From positions 112,940 through 176,939 of the forward strand of contig JAWPOE010000008.1 in NCBI GenBank assembly GCA_033345195.1: a stretch of DNA of 64,000 nucleotides. The letters run 5' to 3'. This document shows positions 9,805 to 59,293 of the stretch, piece by piece. This DNA comes from Alphaproteobacteria bacterium (GTDB lineage: Bacteria; Pseudomonadota; Alphaproteobacteria; Rs-D84). Position 1 is the first letter of the stretch. Each line of letters begins with the position of its first letter. The notes beneath the pieces are model-generated. The model was not told the origin of the DNA. It did no database searches and saw only the letters and a list, made by a program, of their open reading frames with translations. Made by a program: the position numbers and the translations under genes.

Positions 9805-11448
9805 TTAATTTTTTACACGTCGTAAAACAACCATTATTCCCGCCGGCGTCATACCAGGTATACGTGAAAGGGCGGCAATATTTTCTGGACGCGTGGCGTT
9901 TAATTTTTCAATTAATTCGTTTGTTAAGCCGGGCAGGGAATCATACTTAAAATCGACCGGTATTTTCAACATTGCATCGCGTTTGTATGCCGCAATTTCA
10001 CGTTCGTTGCGCGCGATATAGCCGGCATAGAATTTATCATTTTGGGCGATTACTTCTGATTTACGTGATAACTTTTCTTGATACGATTTGTCACTGATTA
10101 ACCCCAGTTTTACGCCAATTGGTCCCAAACGGGCAATTGCATTATCAGAACGCAATGACAAACGATATTCTGCACGCGATGTAAACATACGATACGGTTC
10201 ATCAACCCCCAATGTTGTTATATCATCAATCAATACACCAATCATAGAGTTGGTTCTATCAATTTCCAGTGCGTCCACACCCAATGCATACGCCGCAGCA
10301 TTTGCACCTGCAACCAACCCCTGGGCAGCAGCTTCTTCATAGCCAGATGTGCCATTGATTTGACCGGCAAAGAACATGTGTGAAATATTCTTGGATTGTA
10401 ATTTATTATTTAATGCGCGCGCATCAATTGCATCGTATTCGATTGCGTAACCGTATCTGACAATTTCTGCATTTTCCAAACCTGGGATTGTGCGAATCCA
10501 TTTATCTTGAACGTCACTGCCAAAACTGGTTGATATACCATTTGGATATATCAGGTCGCTGTTCCAACCTTCTGGTTCAAGAAAGACATGGTGCGTTTTA
10601 TGGTCTGGGAAACGCATAACCTTGTCTTCTAAGCTGGGGCAATAACGCGGACCTGTGCCACGAATATCGCCGTTATACATTGGTGCATTTGTTATGTTTT
10701 CACGAATAACATCATGCGTGTGTTCTGTGGTATGCGTAATATAACAAACACTGTCATAATTATTATTTACATCACCATCACTGAACCAATCATGTGGGGT
10801 GTCGCCAGGCTGAACCTCGCACACGGAAAAATCAATCGAATCTTTTTTAATGCGTGCAGGTGTACCCGTTTTCAGTCGTAATAAATCAAACCCAGAATCG
10901 CGCAATACGCCAGAAATATGTGTATCAGGCGATTGATAAGTCCCATCATCTTGCAGACGACCAGATGGAATCTTTTCATTACCACGTGTCACCAAACCGC
11001 CTAAAAAAGTACCAGTTGTTAAAACAATTGCGTTGGCAGAATACGTTTGGTTAACAGTTTTGTTTTTTATATCCAAATCAATAACCGGTTCATATTTTAC
11101 CGTTAAATTTTCATCGTGTGATAAAATATCAACAATCGCGTCATGATATAAGTTACGGTCGATTTGTGCACGTAATGCCTGGGTTGCGGCACCATGCGAT
11201 GCATTTAGTGTACGCCAATGAATTCCCGCCCGATCCGCGGCGCGTGGCATAACGCCACCCAACGCGTCCATTTCGGCGACCATTTGGGATTTACCAGGTC
11301 CACCAATACTGGGGTTGCACGACAACGCCCCCAGGTCAGATTTTGCCTGGGTTAACAGTAATGTTTTTGCCCCACGACGTGCAGACGCGGATGCCGCTTC
11401 GACACCCGCGTGTCCACCACCAATAACAATTACATCATATTTTTTCAT
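9805..11448 (-). CDS. mnmG: tRNA uridine 5-carboxymethylaminomethyl modification enzyme MnmG (GidA)
   Basis: FAD-binding N-terminus MKKYDVIVIGGGHAG and length typical of GidA. Start placed at the ATG overlapping the fabG stop (TAATG). Confidence 0.9.
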   Translation of the reverse strand: MKKYDVIVIGGGHAGVEAASASARRGAKTLLLTQAKSDLGALSCNPSIGGPGKSQMVAEMDALGGVMPRAADRAGIHWRTLNASHGAATQALRAQIDRNLYHDAIVDILSHDENLTVKYEPVIDLDIKNKTVNQTYSANAIVLTTGTFLGGLVTRGNEKIPSGRLQDDGTYQSPDTHISGVLRDSGFDLLRLKTGTPARIKKDSIDFSVCEVQPGDTPHDWFSDGDVNNNYDSVCYITHTTEHTHDVIRENITNAPMYNGDIRGTGPRYCPSLEDKVMRFPDHKTHHVFLEPEGWNSDLIYPNGISTSFGSDVQDKWIRTIPGLENAEIVRYGYAIEYDAIDARALNNKLQSKNISHMFFAGQINGTSGYEEAAAQGLVAGANAAAYALGVDALEIDRTNSMIGVLIDDITTLGVDEPYRMFTSRAEYRLSLRSDNAIARLGPIGVKLGLISDKSYQEKLSRKSEVIAQNDKFYAGYIARNEREIAAYKRDAMLKIPVDFKYDSLPGLTNELIEKLNATRPENIAALSRIPGMTPAGIMVVLRRVKN

Positions 11449-12176
11449 TAAAAACGTCCCATACCGCCGTTTACATGCAATGTTTGACCGTTGATGTATG
11501 ACGCTTCTTCGCTGGCCAAGAATACACATGCGTTTGCAATATCTTCGGGTTCACCAAAACGACCCGCTGGGATTTGTGACAGGTATGTCTTTTTCAATTC
11601 TTCGGGTAAAACGTCAGTCATTGGGGTTTTGATAAAGCCCGGCGCAATTGCATTTGCAGTGATACCACGTGATGCAACCTCGGCTGCGATTGATTTTGTC
11701 ATTGCAATCATGCCACCTTTACTTGCCGCATAGTTTGCCTGGCCCGGACCACCAATTGTACCGATAATGGACGCCATGTTTATAATACGACCATAGCGAT
11801 TTTTCATCATTGGCATAATTACCGCACGACACATCTTGAAACAAGAACGCAGGTTTGTGTTTATAACATCATCAAATTGTTCGTCCGTCATACGCATTAA
11901 CAAAGTATCTTTGGTAATACCGGCGTTGTTAATTAAGATATCAATCTTGCCAGCCTTGTCAATTGTATCCATGATTAATTCAACCGCACCACCATCTGAT
12001 GCAAGATCACATGGAATCTTGATATAATCATCACCAAATTCTGCATCCATTTTTGCAACATTACGACCAGATACAACAACCGTTGCGCCGGCTGCCTTCA
12101 TCTTTTTTGCAATTGCAACACCAATACCACCTGTTGCGCCTGTGATTAATGCAACACGTCCTGTTAAATCAAACAT
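11448..12176 (-). CDS. fabG: 3-oxoacyl-ACP reductase FabG
   Basis: SDR motifs TGATGGIG and YxxxK. Downstream of fabD. Confidence 0.9.
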   Translation of the reverse strand: MFDLTGRVALITGATGGIGVAIAKKMKAAGATVVVSGRNVAKMDAEFGDDYIKIPCDLASDGGAVELIMDTIDKAGKIDILINNAGITKDTLLMRMTDEQFDDVINTNLRSCFKMCRAVIMPMMKNRYGRIINMASIIGTIGGPGQANYAASKGGMIAMTKSIAAEVASRGITANAIAPGFIKTPMTDVLPEELKKTYLSQIPAGRFGEPEDIANACVFLASEEASYINGQTLHVNGGMGRF

Positions 12177-35985: not shown

Positions 35986-36654
35986 ATGTCATACATGTGG
36001 AACGAATTCAACATAAAAACCTTTCCGGCGGAAACAATTGTTTACCGCGATGGCGTGTTTTGTCCGGAATTATCAACACTGACCAATGACCCGATAAATG
36101 ATACATTTGATTTACCGGTACATATTATATATATTGGCGAAATCGCCGGGAAAAACGATTTAAATATTAATGTCGGTACAGAAAATCAAAAAGTCGTTTT
36201 AAGTGTTAATATAAAAAATAAAAAGCCGGCTTTTTTTAACATTTTTATTAAAAACGCCGGGAAAAATTCTGAAATTAGCGGTACTGTGTTAATGGATAAT
36301 CATTCTGAATTAACATATGATTGTGTGGCACATCACTTAGATAAAAATACCGGCATTTTGATAAAAAATAAATTAATTGGCCGGAAAAATTCAAATTCAA
36401 AATTATCAGGGACTGCGATTATTGATAAAGATTGTGAAAATTGTAATTCTGATGTCGGTTTTGTCGCAATGGTGGAACAAGATGCAAAAATTGATTTTAT
36501 GCCGGCACAAAGAATTTCATCTGTCCCAATTTCAGCAGAACATAGTGCCAGTATTTATAAGCCAACAGACGCACAAATTTTATATCTGCGTCAGGCAGGT
36601 CTGGGTACCATCGAAATCGATAATGTTTTAAAAGAAGCATTTTTACAGGATTAA
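35986..36654 (+). CDS. Short SufB/SufD-family protein (SufD-like C-terminal beta-helix region only, 222 aa)
   Basis: C-terminal segment ISAEHSASIYKPTDAQILYLRQAGLGTIEIDNVLKEAF matches the conserved SufB/SufD C-terminus (..H.A.VG.lDeeqlFYLrSRG...ea..li..aF). No sufB or sufC adjacent. Confidence 0.5.
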   Translation: MSYMWNEFNIKTFPAETIVYRDGVFCPELSTLTNDPINDTFDLPVHIIYIGEIAGKNDLNINVGTENQKVVLSVNIKNKKPAFFNIFIKNAGKNSEISGTVLMDNHSELTYDCVAHHLDKNTGILIKNKLIGRKNSNSKLSGTAIIDKDCENCNSDVGFVAMVEQDAKIDFMPAQRISSVPISAEHSASIYKPTDAQILYLRQAGLGTIEIDNVLKEAFLQD

Positions 36655-36660
36655 TAATAA

Positions 36661-36692
36661 AAACCGCCAAACGGCGGTGTTTTTATTTTTTC
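36661..36692. terminator. Bidirectional rho-independent terminator (ACCGCCaaacGGCGGT flanked by A/T runs), shared by the SufD-like gene and rpmJ
   Basis: Perfect 6-bp GC-rich hairpin with T-runs on both strands. Confidence 0.7.
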
Positions 36693-36817
36693 TTAAAGCC
36701 CTGTTTCGCTTTGAACTTTGGATTGCTAGGGTCAATTAAGATAACTTGTTTACCACGACGGATTTGTTTTACATTACCGCGTTTCTTCCAAGCCTTTAAT
36801 GAACTTAAAAATTTCAT
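36683..36817 (-). CDS. rpmJ: 50S ribosomal protein L36 (bL36, Cys-less non-zinc form). 44 aa, below the ORF-track length cutoff.
   Basis: Hand translation MKFLSSLKAWKKRGNVKQIRRGKQVILIDPSNPKFKAKQGFKKK resembles E. coli YkgO/alphaproteobacterial L36 (MKV.SSL......D..I.RR.G...I.....P.FKA.QG). Confidence 0.8.
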   Translation of the reverse strand: MKFLSSLKAWKKRGNVKQIRRGKQVILIDPSNPKFKAKQGFKKK

Positions 36818-36903
36818 GACTTAATCCTTTTTACATGGCGATTATAAACATATTTTTTGAAAAATCAAATAATAATATTATTTATTGTTGTAGTTGTAGG
36901 CCC

Positions 36904-37127
36904 TGTTGAAACTGTTGAAAACTGTTTTTAGTTTTTTATTAACAGTTTTTTAACAAAAAAATCCAGGTTTTATGCGGATGTTTGTAAAAATGTTGAAAAT
37001 TAGTCAAAATAATTAACTGTTGATAAATTTGCACTTTTCAACAGATTTTAACAATTTTGGTGGTGTGTTTTTTATGCTTGTTGAAAATTGTTGAAATTGG
37101 TATAATTATCAACAGGACGGATAGAGA
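36904..37127. promoter_or_regulatory. Upstream regulatory region of virB3-virB4: at least 7 direct or inverted copies of TGTTGAAA, one TTAA-N7-TTAAC (CtrA-box-like) at 36939..36954, and a TATAAT -10 at 37101..37106
   Basis: Motif copies at 36904, 36913, 36991, 37018 (CTGTTGATAAA), 37035 (inverted TTTTCAACAG, forming a palindrome with 37018), 37079, 37089 and 37109 (inverted). Confidence 0.55.
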
Positions 37128-37424
37128 ATGAAACAACAAGTATTAAAAGCATTGGCAAATCCGGCACTGATTTTTTATGTGCCGTATTCACTGGCGGTTT
37201 TGAATTTTGCCATTCAATTTATTATTTTTATGGTGATTTTCTTTGTGTCCTTGGCGTTAACCAAGGGTAATAATCCGGTGCCACCATTATATTTTCTGAT
37301 TTCTGTTGTTGTTGTGCACTCTATAATCGCAGTGTTTGCAAAACGTGACCCACAGTTGGGACAAATTGTGTCGGCAAAAGTACAATTGTTTAAAAAGAAA
37401 ATACCAGGAAAATTAGCAGCATGA
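37128..37424 (+). CDS. virB3: Type IV secretion system protein VirB3
   Basis: About 98 aa, two TM segments, LANPALIFYVPYSLAVLNF motif similar to VirB3/RvhB3. Start codon overlaps the virB4 start. Confidence 0.75.
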   Translation: MKQQVLKALANPALIFYVPYSLAVLNFAIQFIIFMVIFFVSLALTKGNNPVPPLYFLISVVVVHSIIAVFAKRDPQLGQIVSAKVQLFKKKIPGKLAA

Positions 37425-39847
37425 AAGATATACAAGGTTTTTTTGATTATTTCGCAGGCAGTGGTTTTCCAATCACTTTGACAGTGATTGCGATGATAGT
37501 TATTTGTGTGTTTTTGGTGCTGTTGATGTATGTTCCTGTATTGACAAAAAAATTCTTTCCACGTTTTGGTTATGCAAAATATGCAAATTATCTGCCTTTT
37601 AAAACAGTTTTCAAAGATAATTCAATGTCACTGGAAGACGGCAGTTTGTTGCGTGTTTATCGTATCGCAGGTGTTCAGACCAGTATGCAAGATGATGAAA
37701 CCAAGGCAAAATTCTTGGATTTACGTACACAATTATTTAACCAAATCCGTGACCCAGGGGTTGTATTGCGTTTCTATATGGTGCGTGATGCGGCCGATGA
37801 AAATACAAACTATGAATTTAGACAGCCGACACTGCAACGTATTTATAATAAATGGCGTGGTCAGGGGTTAAAGATTTTCTTGAACAGTTATTATGTTGTT
37901 ATTTCTGTTAATGGTGGTGATGCACGTGCAAAATTAAATCAATATTGTAATTATATTGAATCAATGTTGGCGGCATATAGACCGCAATTGTTGAAAAATG
38001 ATAAAGAAGATAATATGGCGCGTTTCTTTGGTCGTATCTTGTCACCAATTTCAAAACCAGAACCAAAGACTGCTGATAATAATATCGCAAATTTGGTGAC
38101 TGTTGATGATGTAGAGTTTTTACGTAATGGACTGGTTAGATATATCAGTGGCGGAAATCAAATGTATGCGTCATTGCTGTCGTTCAAGATGTCGCCAGAT
38201 TATTTAGATGAAGAATTTTTCGATACTGTTGGAACAATACAAACTGAAATGATAACTATGAATGCGTTCCGTATTATGGGGGCGTCGGCAGTTGAAAAAA
38301 CAATTCGTCAAAGACGTATTACATCTGAATCAACACAAACATCAACAGATGAACAAATCGCCGAAGCCGAAGGCGCAATGGATGAAAATGTGTCCGGAAA
38401 TCAGAGTTTGGTAAACTATTATCCTGTATTTATTTTGTTTGGGGCAACACCAGAGGAACTGAAAAAGTATGTTGATGAATTTAAAAAGATTGCCGCGACA
38501 TTTGGTATTTCGCCAATTAATGAAACATTTGCATCAAAGGTTTCTTGGTTTTCACAAATTCCAGGGTTCGATGTTTTTCCACGCAGTTTTAAGTTATTAT
38601 CACGTACGGCGGCAATTTCAATCCCAATGTCCAGTCAACCACGCGGTATTGAAAATTCGGACTGGGGGCCGGGACCATTGGTGGTTTTCCCAACAGCCCA
38701 GGGAACACCATATCAATTTCAATTCCATGTTTCTGATAAACCGGTGGCGGTGGCACATACGCTGACAATTGGTCCAACAGGTGGTGGTAAAACAACATTA
38801 TTCTCGTTCCTGATTGCGCAGAGTTTAAGACATCAAAAGTTAAAGGCATTCTTCTTTGACCGTAATAAAGGGGCAGAAATATTTACACTGGCGGTTGGTG
38901 GTAAATATATCACAATGAATGGTAAAGAAAAAAATACCAAGAAGGATGAACAAGATTTCTTGGCGCATTTAAATCCATTAAAAATGTCTGATACGGCGGC
39001 AAATCGTGCGTTCTTGCGTCGTTGGTTTGCAATTATTTCGGGACAGTCTGATACACAATCAGCAGATGAAATCGCACGTGCAGTGTCTGTGAATTTTGAC
39101 TATTTGTCTGATAATGACAGAATGTTGAAAAATCTGTGGGAAAGCTGTTTTTCGTCGACTGGTAATATGCGACCAGCGTTGAAAAAGTGGGTTGACCCAT
39201 TGCAATATGGTGATATGTTCAATGAAACAGAAGATACACTGGATTTGCAATCAAGATTAACAACGTTTGATTTTACAGATATTTTACAAGATGAAACATT
39301 ATCCCCGGCGGTGATTTCATATATATTGCACAGAATTAATAACACAACCGTTGCCGGCGGTAATCCGTCGCTGATTATGATTGACGAAACGGCACCTATG
39401 TTGGAAAACAAGATGTTCCGTGATAACTTTATAGTTGGTTTGCAAGAAGGACGTAAAAATCGTCAGGCATATATGGTCGCGTTCCAGCGTGCAAATGTTT
39501 TAGATAAATTGGGAATTGGCGACGTGGTGCGTGGTCAGGCACAGACAGTGTTGTTCTTTCGTAATCCGGCGGCAGATGCACGTGATTATGAACATTGGAA
39601 TTTAAATCCGTTGGAAATGGCATTTATTCAGGGCAAGGCGTATCCAAACCTGAAACGTGCAGTGTTGTTATCGCGTCCGGTTAATGGGGAATCTGTGATT
39701 TTAAATACTGAATTAGGTGGTTTGGGCAATATGTTGCGATTGTTTGAATCTGGACGCTCATCTGTATTATTGGCCGAAGAATTATATAAACAGTATGGTA
39801 ATGCGTTTGTAGACGAATATCTGAAAAAGCAAGGTGCCATGGAATAA
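37421..39847 (+). CDS. virB4: Type IV secretion system ATPase VirB4
   Basis: 808 aa, Walker A GPTGGGKTT, CagE/TrbE/VirB4 family architecture. Confidence 0.9.
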   Translation: MKDIQGFFDYFAGSGFPITLTVIAMIVICVFLVLLMYVPVLTKKFFPRFGYAKYANYLPFKTVFKDNSMSLEDGSLLRVYRIAGVQTSMQDDETKAKFLDLRTQLFNQIRDPGVVLRFYMVRDAADENTNYEFRQPTLQRIYNKWRGQGLKIFLNSYYVVISVNGGDARAKLNQYCNYIESMLAAYRPQLLKNDKEDNMARFFGRILSPISKPEPKTADNNIANLVTVDDVEFLRNGLVRYISGGNQMYASLLSFKMSPDYLDEEFFDTVGTIQTEMITMNAFRIMGASAVEKTIRQRRITSESTQTSTDEQIAEAEGAMDENVSGNQSLVNYYPVFILFGATPEELKKYVDEFKKIAATFGISPINETFASKVSWFSQIPGFDVFPRSFKLLSRTAAISIPMSSQPRGIENSDWGPGPLVVFPTAQGTPYQFQFHVSDKPVAVAHTLTIGPTGGGKTTLFSFLIAQSLRHQKLKAFFFDRNKGAEIFTLAVGGKYITMNGKEKNTKKDEQDFLAHLNPLKMSDTAANRAFLRRWFAIISGQSDTQSADEIARAVSVNFDYLSDNDRMLKNLWESCFSSTGNMRPALKKWVDPLQYGDMFNETEDTLDLQSRLTTFDFTDILQDETLSPAVISYILHRINNTTVAGGNPSLIMIDETAPMLENKMFRDNFIVGLQEGRKNRQAYMVAFQRANVLDKLGIGDVVRGQAQTVLFFRNPAADARDYEHWNLNPLEMAFIQGKAYPNLKRAVLLSRPVNGESVILNTELGGLGNMLRLFESGRSSVLLAEELYKQYGNAFVDEYLKKQGAME

Positions 39848-39854
39848 TATATAA

Positions 39855-40466
39855 ATGTTAAAATATTTATTTCTGGTTTTATTTGTTCTGATTTCGTTGC
39901 CAGTGATGGCAGATTCTTGTTTAGAATACAAAAAGATGCCACGCGTTATTTTAAATACACCTGATTGGGAAAAAACAGTTGTTCAACCGCGTGTTCCAAT
40001 GGATTTATGGCATGGAAATGTTATCGCAACATTAACAGATAATTATGATATTGTTGTTGATATTAATCCAATTGATGATGGATTTTGTGTCGCATTAAAA
40101 ACGGTTGATGCGGTTGTTGGGTATAATGACTTTTTAGTTCAGATTGATATCAGGCATATCCCAGAAACATGTACGTATAATGCAGTGTTAAAACATGAAG
40201 ACAAGCATATAAAAACTTATTTATCTGTTATCGATGATTTTAAACCAGAATTACAACGGTCTATATTTTCAGCCGCAGATTCTGTAATGCCAATATTTGT
40301 TAAAACAAAAGATGATGTTGATAGGGCTGTTGATATGATTAATGCAGAATTTCAAGCACACCCTGATATGATTCTGATAAAACAAAAGATTAAGGCCGCC
40401 GAAGAAATAAAAAATAAACAAGTAGATCAGATTGAAACAGGGGATGATTTACGTAATTGTTTATAG
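39855..40466 (+). CDS. Secreted protein with an HExxH zinc-metalloprotease motif (LKHEDKHI), predicted secreted Zn-dependent protease family (COG5661/DUF922-like). 8 bp downstream of virB4.
   Basis: Signal peptide MLKYLFLVLFVLISLPVMA, HEDKH motif, about 200 aa. Confidence 0.5.
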   Translation: MLKYLFLVLFVLISLPVMADSCLEYKKMPRVILNTPDWEKTVVQPRVPMDLWHGNVIATLTDNYDIVVDINPIDDGFCVALKTVDAVVGYNDFLVQIDIRHIPETCTYNAVLKHEDKHIKTYLSVIDDFKPELQRSIFSAADSVMPIFVKTKDDVDRAVDMINAEFQAHPDMILIKQKIKAAEEIKNKQVDQIETGDDLRNCL

Positions 40467-51435: not shown

Positions 51436-52713
51436 TTGAGAGAGAATTTTTTGACCGGAAAAATATTATCTGTTAATCGTAGAAAGTATGCCGTCGGATT
51501 GTTTTGGCAACCGTTGGGTGCAGGGTTTGTGCCACGAAATTATGCGCGTACATTGGCAAAAAATGTTGATAAAAAATTAAATCTGTATGTTGATTATCGT
51601 TCGATGATTGGGTTGGGATCGCGACGGTTCGGCCAGCATGTCGGTATGTTAAGCGCAGCGGCAGAAATTATGGAAAGTTTTTCCGAGTATACTTCTTTCT
51701 TGGCAGTGTTTCAGACGGGAAAATGTTTTTATCTGGTTGCAGCACGTAATGGGATTATTTTAGAAGATAAAATTTTTGATTCCGAAGATGCAGCGCGTGC
51801 AGAATATGCAAAATTATCCGAAATTCCAGATTGGGGTGCGTTCTTTGCACCTGGAACATGGGCGATGCCGCGTGCCGCAGAAAGAAATCTGGCTGATTTA
51901 TTAAATGGTCATTCGCATGCAAGTCTGCATTCAATCAGTCATGTCAGAACTTGGACTTTTTCACTGGTTTTATTTGGTGTGTTTTTGCTGATGGTGTTTG
52001 GGGTTTTTAGTGATTCTTTTAAATTGGTGTTTGCGCCCAGACCAAAAACAACAGAATTAGACCCGGAATTGGTTGCAGAATATAAACGACAAATCGAAGA
52101 AAAAAATAAAGAACTGGACAAGCAATTTGAAATTGAAAAACAGCAGCCACCAGAACCAATTGTTATGCCGTATGAATTGTTGCCTGATGTCCAGGCGCGT
52201 GCAAAACAGTGTTATCAGGCGATTGGATTTTTAATGCAACCAATTGTTGGTTGGAACCAGGTTAATGTTGATTGTGGCGAGATACATGCAATTGCCGAAT
52301 TTAGACGTGACTTTGGAACGTTAGGTGAGTTTTATAATATTGCAACACAGTTGATGCCGGGTGCATTCGTGCAAGAAGTTAATGATGATACATTGCGTGT
52401 TCAGGTTGCCTTGCCAAAGTTGGAAATCTTTTCGTCCCAAGATGAACGCGATGCAGAAACAGTCGTGCGTGACATTGTGACTGCGTTTCAGGGTATAGAT
52501 ATGTCGGTTGAAACCAATATTGTGACAGATTCACTGACCAACGGTGTTGATGTGGCGAATGTTAATGTTGTTGAAATTGCGGCGGAATCAAAACTGGTGC
52601 CGATGCAGTTTATGCAAATATTTGAAGAATTTGGCGGTGTCTATATGGTGCAATGTGCATGGGATGTGGCGTCGCGTACATGGAACTATGAGGTGATTAT
52701 CTATGCAAAATAA
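51436..52713 (+). CDS. Bitopic inner-membrane protein, GspL/PilO(type IVb)-like assembly-platform component: cytoplasmic N-domain about 185 aa, single TM, periplasmic C-domain about 220 aa
   Basis: Architecture: single TM WTFSLVLFGVFLLMVFGVF in the middle. N-terminus KILSVNRRKYAVGLFWQPL resembles GspL N-termini. Lies first in an operon with a GspE-like ATPase and GspF-like platform. By my hand count the TTG start may be 51426, about 10 nt from the track coordinate. Confidence 0.45.
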   Translation: MRENFLTGKILSVNRRKYAVGLFWQPLGAGFVPRNYARTLAKNVDKKLNLYVDYRSMIGLGSRRFGQHVGMLSAAAEIMESFSEYTSFLAVFQTGKCFYLVAARNGIILEDKIFDSEDAARAEYAKLSEIPDWGAFFAPGTWAMPRAAERNLADLLNGHSHASLHSISHVRTWTFSLVLFGVFLLMVFGVFSDSFKLVFAPRPKTTELDPELVAEYKRQIEEKNKELDKQFEIEKQQPPEPIVMPYELLPDVQARAKQCYQAIGFLMQPIVGWNQVNVDCGEIHAIAEFRRDFGTLGEFYNIATQLMPGAFVQEVNDDTLRVQVALPKLEIFSSQDERDAETVVRDIVTAFQGIDMSVETNIVTDSLTNGVDVANVNVVEIAAESKLVPMQFMQIFEEFGGVYMVQCAWDVASRTWNYEVIIYAK

Positions 52714-53404
52714 AAAAATGTTTTTATTAGGTACAGTTTTTTGTGGGCTGATGATGGTTTTTGGTGGCGCATTCGCCGCAGATGATATTGTCGTCGAAGA
52801 AGAAGTTATTGTCGAAGATGTTGATTTAGAACAGGTGTCGGCCGATGCCGTCGCAAATTACGATGTGTCTGGGTCTTTGTTTCAACAGATTACTGATTTG
52901 GAACAAGAAAAAATATTAATGCAGTTGGAGAAAGAACGTGCACAGTTGGACCTGGAACTGGATAGACTGGCCGCAGAAAAAATTAAACTGCATATGGAAA
53001 TTGATACTTTGTCTGGACGCCAGGAACAGCAACAGCAAGAAATTGAAACACAAAAAGCAAAACTGGAAGCAGAGGCGGCACGTATCGAAAAAGAAAAGGA
53101 AAGTTGGCTGGCCGAGGCTGAAAAGAAAGCAACTGCGCGTGTTGCAAGCGATAAAAGACCAACAGAAGATGGTGCAGAACCAGAAATTGATATTACAAAA
53201 AAATATCGTCTGGTTAATGTTATTGGTGCAGGTTCACAATTACAGGCAACAATCGAAGACCTGAATACAGGGCAAAGTAAACGTATCAGCGTTGGCCGTG
53301 ATATAGACGGTTTGGTCGTTAAGTCTATTTCGTTGTACGATGGTGTTGTGTTTGTTGGGTCTGATGGTATGACACAAAATCTGAATGTCAGTGGTGGAAG
53401 ATAA
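52703..53404 (+). CDS. Periplasmic/IM-anchored coiled-coil protein with a C-terminal PilP/GspC-HR-like beta domain
   Basis: N-terminal signal/anchor, long EQ-rich coiled coil, C-terminal LVNVIGAGSQLQATIEDLNTGQSKRISVGRDIDGLVVKSISLYDGVVFV resembling the PilP/GspC secretin-interacting domain. Confidence 0.4.
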   Translation: MQNKKMFLLGTVFCGLMMVFGGAFAADDIVVEEEVIVEDVDLEQVSADAVANYDVSGSLFQQITDLEQEKILMQLEKERAQLDLELDRLAAEKIKLHMEIDTLSGRQEQQQQEIETQKAKLEAEAARIEKEKESWLAEAEKKATARVASDKRPTEDGAEPEIDITKKYRLVNVIGAGSQLQATIEDLNTGQSKRISVGRDIDGLVVKSISLYDGVVFVGSDGMTQNLNVSGGR

Positions 53405-53407
53405 AAA

Positions 53408-55036
53408 ATGGTTCGTTCAAAAGAATCTTTGGAAGATATCAGCAAGTTGCCATCAATACCGGCAGGTATGGAAAATGGTGACAGCAAGGATATAATTGAT
53501 TATCTGTTCGCGAATGGTAATAAATTGCTGACTGCGACAGGTGCAATGTTGGAACTGCCCCGTGATTCACAGAGCTTAATTGCGTATTTTGCAGGTGGTG
53601 AAATTATTATTTCGCGTACGCATCGTTATGATGGGCGTGTGTTGGCGTTCTTGGATTTGTTGGCGCGTCGTGGGCGACCAATGCGTGAACCGTTTTATTC
53701 TGATTTGGGTTTGGTTTCGAATATTTATAAATCGCATGAAATGCGCTTGGGCGGTGGTGCGCGTTCACGCATAGATTTTGATAACCAAATGCAGAAAGAT
53801 TTTGTCGATATTATTGCCAAGGCCGCATCGCATAAGGTTTCAGACGTTCATATAGAGGTTGCAGACCAAACAACAATCTATTTCCGTGTCGATGGCAGTA
53901 TGCAACCAGTGCTGGAATATAATTCACAGTGGGGTGAATCGTTTGTTCGTGCCGCATTTGCATCGGCAGATATGTCAAATGCAAACTATGCCCAGAATGA
54001 ATATCAATCTGCACAGAAAGATGGACGTACCCCATTACGTGGAACCAAGGATTTATATTTGCCGTCTGGTGTATTGGGTGTGCGTATGCAATTTAACCCA
54101 ATCGCATTTGGCAGTCGGTATGTGGTTATGCGACTGTTGTATGATAACCCGTCCGAAGGTATTAAAATTGAACAGGAATTTGGCCCATATGAACAACGTT
54201 TGTTGGCACGTATGCGTTCGTTCCCAACAGGATTGGTGATTGTTGCCGGTCCAACCAGTTCTGGTAAATCAACAACATTGGTGCGTAATATGTCGCTGAT
54301 GTTAAAAGAACGTAATTATGAAATTAATATGATTACGGTGGAAAACCCTGTTGAACAAAAGATTTTTGGCGCACGTCAAATGCCGGTGGTAAATACAACA
54401 AACGAAGAACAACGCGAAGAAAAGTATGTAGAGGCGTTGGCAGCGGCGTTAAGAAGTGACCCTGATACATTGATGGTGGGCGAAATTCGAACATTGGCGG
54501 CGGCACAATTAACAGTGCGTGGTGCGCTGTCCGGACATAATGTGTGGACGACATTGCATGCGAATTCTGCCATGGCGGCGTTAACGCGTTTGTTAGATTT
54601 GGGTATCGAACCTTTTAAATTAAAAGAAGAAACATTGATGCGTGGTTTGGTGTCGATGCGACTGTTTAAAAAAGTTTGTCCGTATTGTCGTGAACCGTTG
54701 GCAAATCATCCAGAACGTGGCGCGTATCGTCGCGTTATGGGGGCGTATGGTGAAATTGGTCTGCGTCAGGTTTATCAGCGTGGTACGGGGTGTGAACACT
54801 GTAATGGGACAGGGCATTTGGGACGTATCAAGGCCGGTGAAATTATCATTACAAACAGTGAATTTTTACGTCTGGCATTATCTGGTAATACAGATGGGGC
54901 TGTGCGATATTGGCTGGAAGAAATGGATGGGCGCACGTTAAAGGAATCTGCGACATCATTAATGTTACAGGGAATTATCAGTGTTGATGAATTAGAACGC
55001 TGGGTTGGACAGTTGAATCAACCAGGGGTTTATTAA
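53408..55036 (+). CDS. GspE/PilB/PilQ-family secretion ATPase (type II secretion / type IV pilus assembly ATPase)
   Basis: Walker A GPTSSGKST, Asp/His boxes (LMVGEIR...TLHAN), C-terminal tetracysteine CPYC...CEHC typical of GspE/PilB. Confidence 0.85.
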   Translation: MVRSKESLEDISKLPSIPAGMENGDSKDIIDYLFANGNKLLTATGAMLELPRDSQSLIAYFAGGEIIISRTHRYDGRVLAFLDLLARRGRPMREPFYSDLGLVSNIYKSHEMRLGGGARSRIDFDNQMQKDFVDIIAKAASHKVSDVHIEVADQTTIYFRVDGSMQPVLEYNSQWGESFVRAAFASADMSNANYAQNEYQSAQKDGRTPLRGTKDLYLPSGVLGVRMQFNPIAFGSRYVVMRLLYDNPSEGIKIEQEFGPYEQRLLARMRSFPTGLVIVAGPTSSGKSTTLVRNMSLMLKERNYEINMITVENPVEQKIFGARQMPVVNTTNEEQREEKYVEALAAALRSDPDTLMVGEIRTLAAAQLTVRGALSGHNVWTTLHANSAMAALTRLLDLGIEPFKLKEETLMRGLVSMRLFKKVCPYCREPLANHPERGAYRRVMGAYGEIGLRQVYQRGTGCEHCNGTGHLGRIKAGEIIITNSEFLRLALSGNTDGAVRYWLEEMDGRTLKESATSLMLQGIISVDELERWVGQLNQPGVY

Positions 55037-55038
55037 GC

Positions 55039-56112
55039 ATGATAACAAAAATTGAATTATTATATGCAAAACTGATGTTCCGTACAAATACGGAAAAACG
55101 TATGTCGATTTGTCGAAAATTGGCGTCGTTGTTGCGCAATGATTTTACGTTGATTGATGCGCTGGAACGTCTGGAAATGATTGAATCGAAAAATGGAACG
55201 AAACCGCGTGAACCGTTTGCAATTGTTATGCGCCAGTGGCAAAAAAACCTGGAACGTGGTATGAGTTTTTCAGAGGCAACACGTGGTTGGGTGCCACCCG
55301 AAGAAACGTTGTTGGTGACATCTGGAAATCTATCAAATTTAGTTGTTGCGCTGGAAAATGTCGGTCGTGTTGTTGATGGTACACAACGTATCAGACGTGC
55401 CATGACAACGGCGATTGCCTATCCGTTATTTTTGTTGGCACTGACGTTTGGTATAATTATTATGGTGGGCGTTTATCTGGTTCCACCATTGGCCGAGGTT
55501 GCAGGAAATCAAGTCGTATGGCGTGGGTCGGCACGCTCTTTGGTTTTGTTGTCTGATTTTTCGATAAAGTATTGGTATTATTTTGTGGTTGTTTTTGCGT
55601 CAATCGTCGCGATTGTTTGGGTGTCGTTGGCAAATTGGTCGGGGCGTATTCGTGCCATGTTTGATAAATTGCCACCATGGAATGTTTATAAGCTTCAGGT
55701 TTCTGTGGGTTGGTTAATGTCATTGGGGGCAATGGTCAGTGCCGGTGTGACAATTCCAGACGCAATTCGTATGTTGGCAGATAATGCAAATAAATATCTG
55801 CGTAAAATATTGGAATCTGCATTGCGATTTATTGCAAATGGTGACAATCTGGGGGTTGCATTGCAGAAAACAAATCGTGATTTTCCAGAAGCCGAGATTA
55901 TTGGCGACTTAACGATTTATGCCGATATGAATGGTTTTGATGAAAACTTAAATCAGATTGCGAATGATTATTTGAATGAGTCTGTACGTAAAATGGAAAA
56001 GATTTCAAATACATTGAACAGTGTTGGTATTTTGTTGGTATCCGCGATTATCGCATGGGTTGTGCTGGGGACGTTCCAGATGCAAGACCAGATTACATCA
56101 GCACTAACGTAA
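55039..56112 (+). CDS. GspF/PilC/PilR-family inner-membrane platform protein (two T2SSF repeats)
   Basis: Two repeats with the T2SSF consensus (..SLLRNDFTLIDALERL.. and ..GVTIPDAIRMLADNA..FPE..). 357 aa with 3 TM regions. Confidence 0.8.
   Translation: MITKIELLYAKLMFRTNTEKRMSICRKLASLLRNDFTLIDALERLEMIESKNGTKPREPFAIVMRQWQKNLERGMSFSEATRGWVPPEETLLVTSGNLSNLVVALENVGRVVDGTQRIRRAMTTAIAYPLFLLALTFGIIIMVGVYLVPPLAEVAGNQVVWRGSARSLVLLSDFSIKYWYYFVVVFASIVAIVWVSLANWSGRIRAMFDKLPPWNVYKLQVSVGWLMSLGAMVSAGVTIPDAIRMLADNANKYLRKILESALRFIANGDNLGVALQKTNRDFPEAEIIGDLTIYADMNGFDENLNQIANDYLNESVRKMEKISNTLNSVGILLVSAIIAWVVLGTFQMQDQITSALT

Positions 56113-56249: not shown

Positions 56250-59293
<3,044 letters not shown>

Follow-up and report, generated by a model that had tools for sequence, protein, structure and literature searches.

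The gap between rpmJ and virB3 (about 36841-37115 of the 64-kb window, as we term the whole stretch of DNA analysed) is most probably the chromosomal origin of replication, oriC, and the TGTTGAAA(A) repeats that crowd it its DnaA boxes. We base this reading on the closeness of the repeated motif to known DnaA boxes, on a layout resembling the basal unwinding system (BUS) of B. subtilis, on a step in third-codon GC skew at this gap, on the presence of the same boxes beside dnaA in other organisms, and on the conservation of the array and its box order in 80 species, the array being the only cluster of its kind in 64 kb. The host is an uncultured Candidatus Enterousia-like alphaproteobacterium of the order Rs-D84 and, if the reading is true, a replication origin has been located for this uncultured order of gut Alphaproteobacteria.

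Repeat array and layout of the rpmJ-virB3 gap

The preliminary description of this DNA, which assigned the repeats to the control of the secretion genes downstream, had counted at least seven copies of the motif in both orientations. We found six exact copies of TGTTGAAA, on the + strand at 36904, 36913, 36991, 37079 and 37089 and inverted (- strand) at 37036-37043, together with two TGTTGATA variants at 37018 (+) and 37106-37114 (-). With a relaxed pattern (TGT[TG][GA]A[AT]A) about 11 copies are counted in the 310 bp of the gap (36818-37127), and 11 DnaA-box-like 9-mers fall within ~210 bp of this one intergenic region. The palindrome already described is present as CTGTTGATAAA-N7-TTTTCAACAG at 37017-37044, as are the tandem copies preceding a TATAAT, which lie directly 5' of the sequence TGgTATAAT at 37098-37106, and the TTAA-N7-TTAAC site at 36939-36954. 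The density of the motif is indeed far beyond chance, as the six exact copies of TGTTGAAA compare with a mean of 0.10 and a maximum of 2 when 36818-37127 is shuffled 20,000 times with its dinucleotides preserved. Over the whole window, 28 copies were found where 10 ± 3 are expected, their sole cluster in 64 kb being the rpmJ-virB3 gap, and no cluster of the classical TTATCCACA box was detected elsewhere in the 64-kb window.

The scan of a genome collection provided 80 orthologous loci, each with flanks of 4 kb only, from species other than that of the window and in many cases labelled Candidatus Enterousia. The VirB4 protein of the window has an identical counterpart in the metagenome-assembled genome of an uncultured alphaproteobacterium, and Candidatus Enterousia belongs to the order Rs-D84 and has genomes below 1 Mb (PMC12306168). 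Upstream regions were aligned for 78 of the species, the trinucleotides and GC cluster described below were tabulated for 65 loci, and the GC3 step was computed for 74 species; since these species share ancestry, counts among them are not independent. Far from being equally frequent elsewhere, the motif is 52-fold denser in the array (16.1 versus 0.31 per kb over the 80 orthologous loci) and, far from being absent upstream of orthologous virB3 genes, it occurs there in 2-9 exact TGTTGAAA copies per 320 bp in 80/80 loci. The same array is found throughout, its box order being kept in all 80 species, and the 78 aligned upstream regions display a fixed layout of about ten boxes arranged ++ -- ++ -- ++. 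The array, virB3, virB4 and a gene for a 203-aa protein form a unit in 80/80 loci. The left-hand neighbours are nearly as constant, with ribosomal protein L36 within 600 bp upstream of virB3 in 76/80 loci, ychF in 75/80 and a SufBD-like gene in 73/80; the genes past the 203-aa gene differ among loci.

Read from left to right, the region begins with the divergent neighbour of the array, rpmJ (36683..36817, - strand), which encodes a Cys-less type of ribosomal protein L36 (Pfam PF00444). Its promoter-like site, TTGATT-N16-TATAAT (36841..36868, - strand; 10/12 matches in a consensus scan), is directed away from the array and belongs to a block that is more than 90% conserved in the 78 species. 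It is overlapped by a stretch at 36847..36884 in which 35 of 38 nucleotides (92%) are A or T, and a pure A/T 18-mer is found at 36869-36886; in the 65-locus position table, positions -36 to -20 are nearly all A or T. We regard the stretch as the candidate DNA-unwinding element. It is followed, in the position where DnaA-trios are expected, by five T-W-G units, TTG TTG TAG TTG TAG (36885..36899, + strand). The 3-nt periodicity of this run is kept in the 65 loci, with T at -7/-10/-13/-16/-19 and G at -5/-8/-14/-17. The middle base is A in 39/65 loci at the proximal unit and in 5-20/65 at the others, being mostly T further out, and relatives L007-L012 and L019 have three or four TAG among the five units. 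A GC cluster of 4 nt, GCCC (36900..36903; consensus GG[C/G]C in the 65-locus table), separates the run from the first box.

The distal tandem pair (36904..36921, + strand) consists of B1 TGTTGAAAC and B2 TGTTGAAAA in a 9-bp register, B2 being TGTTGAAAA in 61/78 species and TGTGGAAAA in 3/78. Next come the degenerate inverted boxes B3 TTATTAACA and B4 TTTTTAACA (36936..36955, - strand), which were recognized in the alignment of 78 species, B4 reading TGTTAAAAA in 50 of them and TGTTGAAAA in 26. Box B5, TGTTGAAAA, lies at 36991..36999 (+), and B6, TGTTGATAA (= TTATCAACA, one mismatch to the E. coli consensus box), at 37018..37026 (+). The inverted boxes B7 TTTTCAACA and B8 ATTTTAACA occupy 37035..37053 (- strand), and B7 is TGTTGAAAA in 41/78 species and TGTTAAAAA in 25/78. 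The proximal tandem pair, B9 TGTTGAAAA and B10 TGTTGAAAT (37079..37097, + strand), in a 10-bp register, lies on the -35 and the spacer of the virB3 promoter and is the best-conserved part of the region, B9 being exact in 72/78 and B10 in 66/78 species. The extended -10 of that promoter, TGgTATAAT (37098..37106, +), is kept as TTGTTATAAT or TTGGTATAAT in the 78 species, and a promoter scan also lists TTGAAA-N17-AATTAT at 37081-37109. Finally, a box B11, TTATCAACA (37106..37114, - strand), sits just 3' of the virB3 -10 in a subset of species only, and its site reads TGTTGATAA in 9/78. An Rfam search of 36000-38000 with E values up to 1 returned nothing.

A short hairpin, GC-rich and bordered by one run of A and one of T, lies between the second and third box groups in many species (L003, L004, L009-L012, L023, L027 and L028 among them) and at 36958-36985 of the window. 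Examples are AAAAAAGCCTTGG-ATTAT-AAGGTTTTTT, CCGGG-TTTT-CCCGG and CTTAG-ATTT-CTAAG, and the hairpin resembles a small terminator working in both directions, or else a structural element that has undergone compensatory changes. About 15-20 species have it in a strong form, whereas the form in the window is weak (-2.7 kcal/mol) and many species lack it altogether; it was for these reasons excluded from the core element.

Box identity and strand composition

The reverse complement of the motif, TTTTCAACA, differs from the TTATCCACA consensus by two mismatches, at positions 3 and 6, and the TTATCAACA boxes at 37018 and 37106 differ from it by one. At orthologous boxes in several species the place of the motif is taken by TGTGGAAAA/T (= TTTTCCACA), and the box consensus of the lineage can be written TGTT[G/A]AAA[A/T]. 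The gap holds a cluster of boxes within two mismatches of TTATCCACA, with an AT-rich element beside them, as well as a tandem pair, a short GC-rich spacer and a run in the trio position in fixed order and orientation. Known DnaA-trios are conserved above all in their central A, and the published search program demands (NAN)x3. The window fails this rule, as two of its five units are NAN and these are not contiguous, so we call the module BUS-like rather than a verified BUS. A run of T-W-G instead of N-A-N would, if truly read by DnaA, represent a variant of its single-strand recognition code, and the 80 candidate origins, with their variation between TAG and TTG, constitute a natural series on how strict the DnaA-trio code is. 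No match to dnaA was obtained in the window or in the 80 loci with their 4-kb flanks, using E. coli and Caulobacter sequences as queries. The candidate origin, located away from dnaA and built on a non-canonical box, would probably be missed by origin finders seeded with TTATCCACA.

The boxes are not confined to this lineage. When metagenomes were scanned for the tandem pair, no Enterousia contig was among the matches listed, and these matches included at least three unrelated contigs with boxes in intergenic DNA adjoining dnaA: L180, with the arrangement rnpA-[boxes]-dnaA-dnaN; L193, where about 10 boxes follow the dnaA 3' end; and L178, where the pair lies between dnaA and dnaN and is accompanied by TTATCCAC boxes. 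Contig L140 was rejected as a fourth dnaA-linked example, its match being a coding coincidence. The 17-mer TTTCAACAcTTTCAACA at L140:3195-3211 lies inside dnaA and encodes the FNTFNT of the conserved EEFF(N/H)TFN motif; because TTTCAACAcTTTCAACA arises in the dnaA coding sequence, scans for the box pair pick up dnaA genes themselves. We also considered whether residues of DnaA domain IV are linked to the type of box, at positions which we take to be equivalent to E. coli D433 and T435, and discarded this idea as inconsistent: L193 has N and S there, and L180 keeps D.

In L168 the tandem pair stands directly 5' of six canonical CTA trios. Genes for a Microviridae capsid F protein and for a replication protein are found on this 5.8-kb metagenomic stretch, and L168:1-260, upstream of the replication gene, has eight TTTTCAACA-type boxes; the tandem pair is among them and is followed by CTACTACTACTACTACTA (the six DnaA-trios) and AT-rich DNA. 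The arrangement resembles a DnaA module of host type, for unwinding or loading, carried by a small ssDNA phage. At L136:4900-5280 (GC 0.39), with groEL on one side and a gene for a metallophosphatase on the other, 'gagtTTTCAACAcTTTCAACA' pairs occur several times, in one case with CTA CTA ATA behind the pair. This stretch probably represents a further origin with the same box but no linkage to dnaA. At L086:1230-1740, 23 boxes were counted in ~600 bp.

Strand composition switches at the same gap. For the GC skew at third codon positions (GC3 skew), calculated per gene and expressed on the + strand, the best change point in the window falls between 36817 and 37128, with a log-likelihood gain of 155 as compared to 121 for the gene-orientation switch at 26.4 kb. 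The step is seen with the + strand genes alone (0.09 to 0.43) and with the - strand genes alone (-0.06 to +0.32). Left of the gap, nearly all genes have values from -0.27 to +0.28; right of it, every gene lies between +0.14 and +0.64, three minus-strand genes included. By adding 10 kb beyond the window, the positive skew of the right arm could be followed to ~74 kb; to the left, the sequence reaches ~100 bp beyond the window edge. The switch is of chromosome scale, extending over at least 37 kb, and its polarity, from low to high in the rightward direction, is that of an origin and not of a terminus. Among the relatives, an upward GC3 step of more than 0.2 across the array was measured in 73/74 species, and the right side exceeds the left in 66/66 loci for + genes and in 38/41 for - genes. 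The sign reverses fully in 25/74 relatives (from -0.45 to +0.43 in L047, for example); the genome of the window shows no such reversal, the GC3 skew of its left arm being ~0 rather than negative, as in its closest relatives. The minimum of the raw cumulative GC skew, at ~26 kb, was dismissed as a candidate origin: it follows the gene-orientation switch, has the lower GC3 score and has no box cluster nearby.

The skew of this genome is one-sided, with ~+0.37 on the right arm (L201 included) and ~0 on the left, and other species are either reversed (L024, -0.6 left and ~0 right) or symmetric (L047 and L076). The coding-strand GC3 skew of ychF is +0.06 here versus +0.40 in L061 and L076. As to the wider gene neighbourhood, topA and dnaG are found just left of the candidate origin and mnmG (gidA) at 9805-11529, and a PilO/PilP/GspE/GspF-like cluster (type IV pilus or type II secretion-like, 51436-56112) and gyrB (56837-59293) lie 14-20 kb to its right. 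A search for parS (TGTTTCACGTGAAACA, up to 3 mismatches) gave one chance-level match only, far from the array.

The virB3-virB4 operon and competing explanations

The virB3-like gene (37128-37424, + strand; Pfam PF05101, E 4.9e-6) and the virB4-like gene (37421-39847, + strand; PF03135) are transcribed away from the candidate origin. VirB4 matches TIGR00929 with an E value of 2e-111, below the curated cut-off (374 bits versus 643), although its conservation is unusual, with an identity across the 80 loci of 73 to 96%. There is no other virB gene nearby, nor any further gene of a type IV secretion system (T4SS) within the 64-kb window, and VirB3/VirB4 looks like an orphan, divergent module in genomes of less than 1 Mb. 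The third member of the unit, a lineage-specific gene (39855..40466, + strand) that always follows virB4 (80/80 loci), encodes the 203-aa protein, which has an invariant HExxH (H114-E115-x-x-H118), an N-terminal hydrophobic helix and a conserved Cys22. The protein has no Pfam or NCBIfam family and its structure model (pLDDT 90) gave no fold match in the PDB; we consider it a possible metallopeptidase, either secreted or lipid-anchored, with a tie to the VirB3/VirB4 module. In the window it is followed by rmlACDB.

If the gap is oriC, DnaA would occupy about 10 boxes in the order ++ -- ++ -- ++, and the distal pair (36904-36921) would act with the GC cluster and the T-W-G run to steer a DnaA-ATP oligomer onto one strand. 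The adjoining AT-rich stretch (36847-36884) would then be opened, as in the basal unwinding system of B. subtilis. The promoters of rpmJ (leftward) and virB3 (rightward) would fire outward and leave negative supercoiling between them, which would aid this opening, and DnaA bound to the proximal pair, on the virB3 -35 and spacer, would also set virB3-virB4 transcription. Observed are the array with its conservation and layout, the switch in composition at this place and the same boxes beside dnaA in other organisms; that DnaA binds, where it unwinds the DNA and how it acts on virB3 are inferred from the layout and from known systems. Since the virB3 promoter is overlapped by the box pair with the highest conservation, expression of virB3-virB4 is probably coupled to DnaA. 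A further-reaching proposal, which is tentative and which we regard as rather doubtful, would give the origin of this reduced-genome gut lineage a second role, the control of a conserved orphan operon, virB3-virB4-HExxH: through the nearly invariant proximal pair, the VirB4 ATPase module would be expressed in strict dependence on DnaA occupancy and on the initiation of replication. The same proposal would see in the T-W-G run a variant single-strand recognition code for DnaA.

The preliminary description had instead proposed that a dedicated regulator binds the array cooperatively and controls the secretion genes. Cooperative protein binding to the conserved array stays plausible, but a regulator dedicated to the T4SS is not supported, since the array runs ~200 bp past the virB3 promoter to the module of AT-rich DNA, trinucleotides and GC cluster by the rpmJ promoter, since the motif is a DnaA-box variant and since the strand-composition switch falls at this gap. 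Direct repeats spaced by 9-10 bp fit winged-helix response regulators, and a transcription factor other than DnaA could be imagined to control virB3-virB4, and perhaps rpmJ, by cooperative binding, any origin being separate. Besides the spacing of the direct repeats, this explanation would account for the pair on the virB3 promoter being the most conserved part of the region. It is nevertheless unlikely: half of the boxes are 130-220 bp away from this promoter, by the unwinding-like module, the motif is interchangeable with TTTTCCACA, and the same boxes are found by dnaA in other organisms. Furthermore, there is no regulator gene adjoining the operon and no match to the Agrobacterium vir box, TNCAATTGAAAY, of which the best match has 3 mismatches and no exact copy exists anywhere in the window. 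Dense repeats upstream of secretion genes, then, need not be the regulatory sites of those genes.

DnaA-box clusters outside oriC are known in E. coli, and the array could likewise bind DnaA to titrate or regulate it, as a datA- or DARS-like cluster, or repress the two flanking promoters while replication starts elsewhere. The left arm of this genome, devoid of negative skew, would agree with such a role. We judge it improbable in view of the GC3-skew step at the gap in 73 of the 74 species, with sign reversal in 25, and of the composition of the region, where pair, GC cluster, periodic trinucleotides and AT-rich tract make up an unwinding-type module and not boxes alone.

CtrA sites occur in alphaproteobacterial origins, and the TTAA-N7-TTAAC at 36939-36954, an exact match to the CtrA consensus as had been pointed out and the sole such site in 64 kb, could let CtrA gate the origin or the virB3 promoter in the manner of Caulobacter or Rickettsia. 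Of 78 species, however, only ~20 have the complete TTAA-N7-TTAA at the corresponding position. Its first half varies freely (TAAA, TTAG, TCAA, TAAC or TGAA among the 78 species), while the second half lies within a box and alternates between TTAAC and TCAAC, which is the box motif itself. The CtrA-like site, judged from these sequences, is a by-product of the degenerate inverted boxes B3 and B4. Searches with Caulobacter and E. coli sequences gave no ctrA match in the window or in the 80 loci, and the rpmJ-virB3 gap contains neither GANTC nor GATC. Gating by CtrA is consequently very improbable; of the cell-cycle control suggested earlier, a link between virB3-virB4 and the cell cycle stays plausible, but not control by CtrA. 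In the window at large GATC is strongly depleted (27 sites versus 177 ± 12 expected from dinucleotide-preserving shuffles), which points to a restriction system aimed at GATC or to selection of a similar kind. This depletion, together with the lack of GATC in the putative origin, argues against an origin control of the Dam/SeqA type.

It is scarcely credible that an integrated plasmid or conjugative element carried in the virB genes and that the repeats are the iterons of its vegetative origin. T4SS genes are often carried by elements of this sort, and the repeats occur in direct as well as in inverted orientation, but rep, relaxase and integrase genes are missing from the vicinity, the surrounding genes have housekeeping functions and 80 species have kept the unit, a similarity search of 36600-39900 gave no plasmid match, the repeats are 9-mers and not iterons of 17-22 bp, and the skew switch is of chromosome scale (at least 37 kb).

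Comparison with known origins and vir promoters

Agrobacterium virB operons controlled by VirG through the vir box resemble the present region in having repeated TTGAAA-containing sites upstream of virB genes, and differ from it in that the array described here comes with origin features and extends beyond the promoter. Within the same class, the Caulobacter crescentus Cori and the Rickettsia origins carry CtrA and IHF sites. Like these origins, the candidate origin does not adjoin dnaA and is flanked by divergent promoters; unlike them, it has no conserved CtrA site, no GANTC and no hemE neighbour, and its box sequence is another one.

The box itself finds a counterpart in the oriC of Thermoanaerobacter tengcongensis, whose box consensus TTATCNACA leaves position 6 free and whose DnaA shifts an oligonucleotide carrying TGTTGATAA plus TGTGGATAA (PMC1888806); TTATCAACA, moreover, appears among the species-specific boxes tabulated in PMC8287927. 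In T. tengcongensis, boxes overlap a promoter at one edge of the origin and have been proposed to regulate dnaA (PMC1888806). Both regions tolerate A at box position 6, and both have two groups of boxes, one by the AT-rich opening site and one on a promoter. They differ in the adjacent gene, which is virB3-virB4 here and dnaA there, and in box position 3, which is T in most boxes here and A there.

The closest parallel concerns the module at the rpmJ side. The basal unwinding system of B. subtilis oriC consists of DnaA-boxes #6/#7, a GC cluster, DnaA-trios and an AT-rich 27-mer (Richardson 2016; PMC6669920; PMC8287927), and the strand used in the corresponding assay (oligonucleotide oHM558) reads TAGTAGAAGTAATAGTAG / GGCC / TGTGGATT TGTGGATAA (PMC8287927, supplement). 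The order in the window is AT-rich DNA / TTG TTG TAG TTG TAG / GCCC / TGTTGAAAC TGTTGAAAA. The two modules are unlike in the boxes themselves (TGTTGAAAA here, TGTGGATAA there), in the trinucleotides, which are T-W-G here with a mostly central T, and in their surroundings, the candidate origin not adjoining dnaA. They are alike in the order and orientation of their parts, in the 9-bp box register, in the 4-nt GC spacer, in the 3-nt periodic run and in the AT-rich flanking DNA, and the boxes of the candidate origin point in the same direction as those of B. subtilis and H. pylori.
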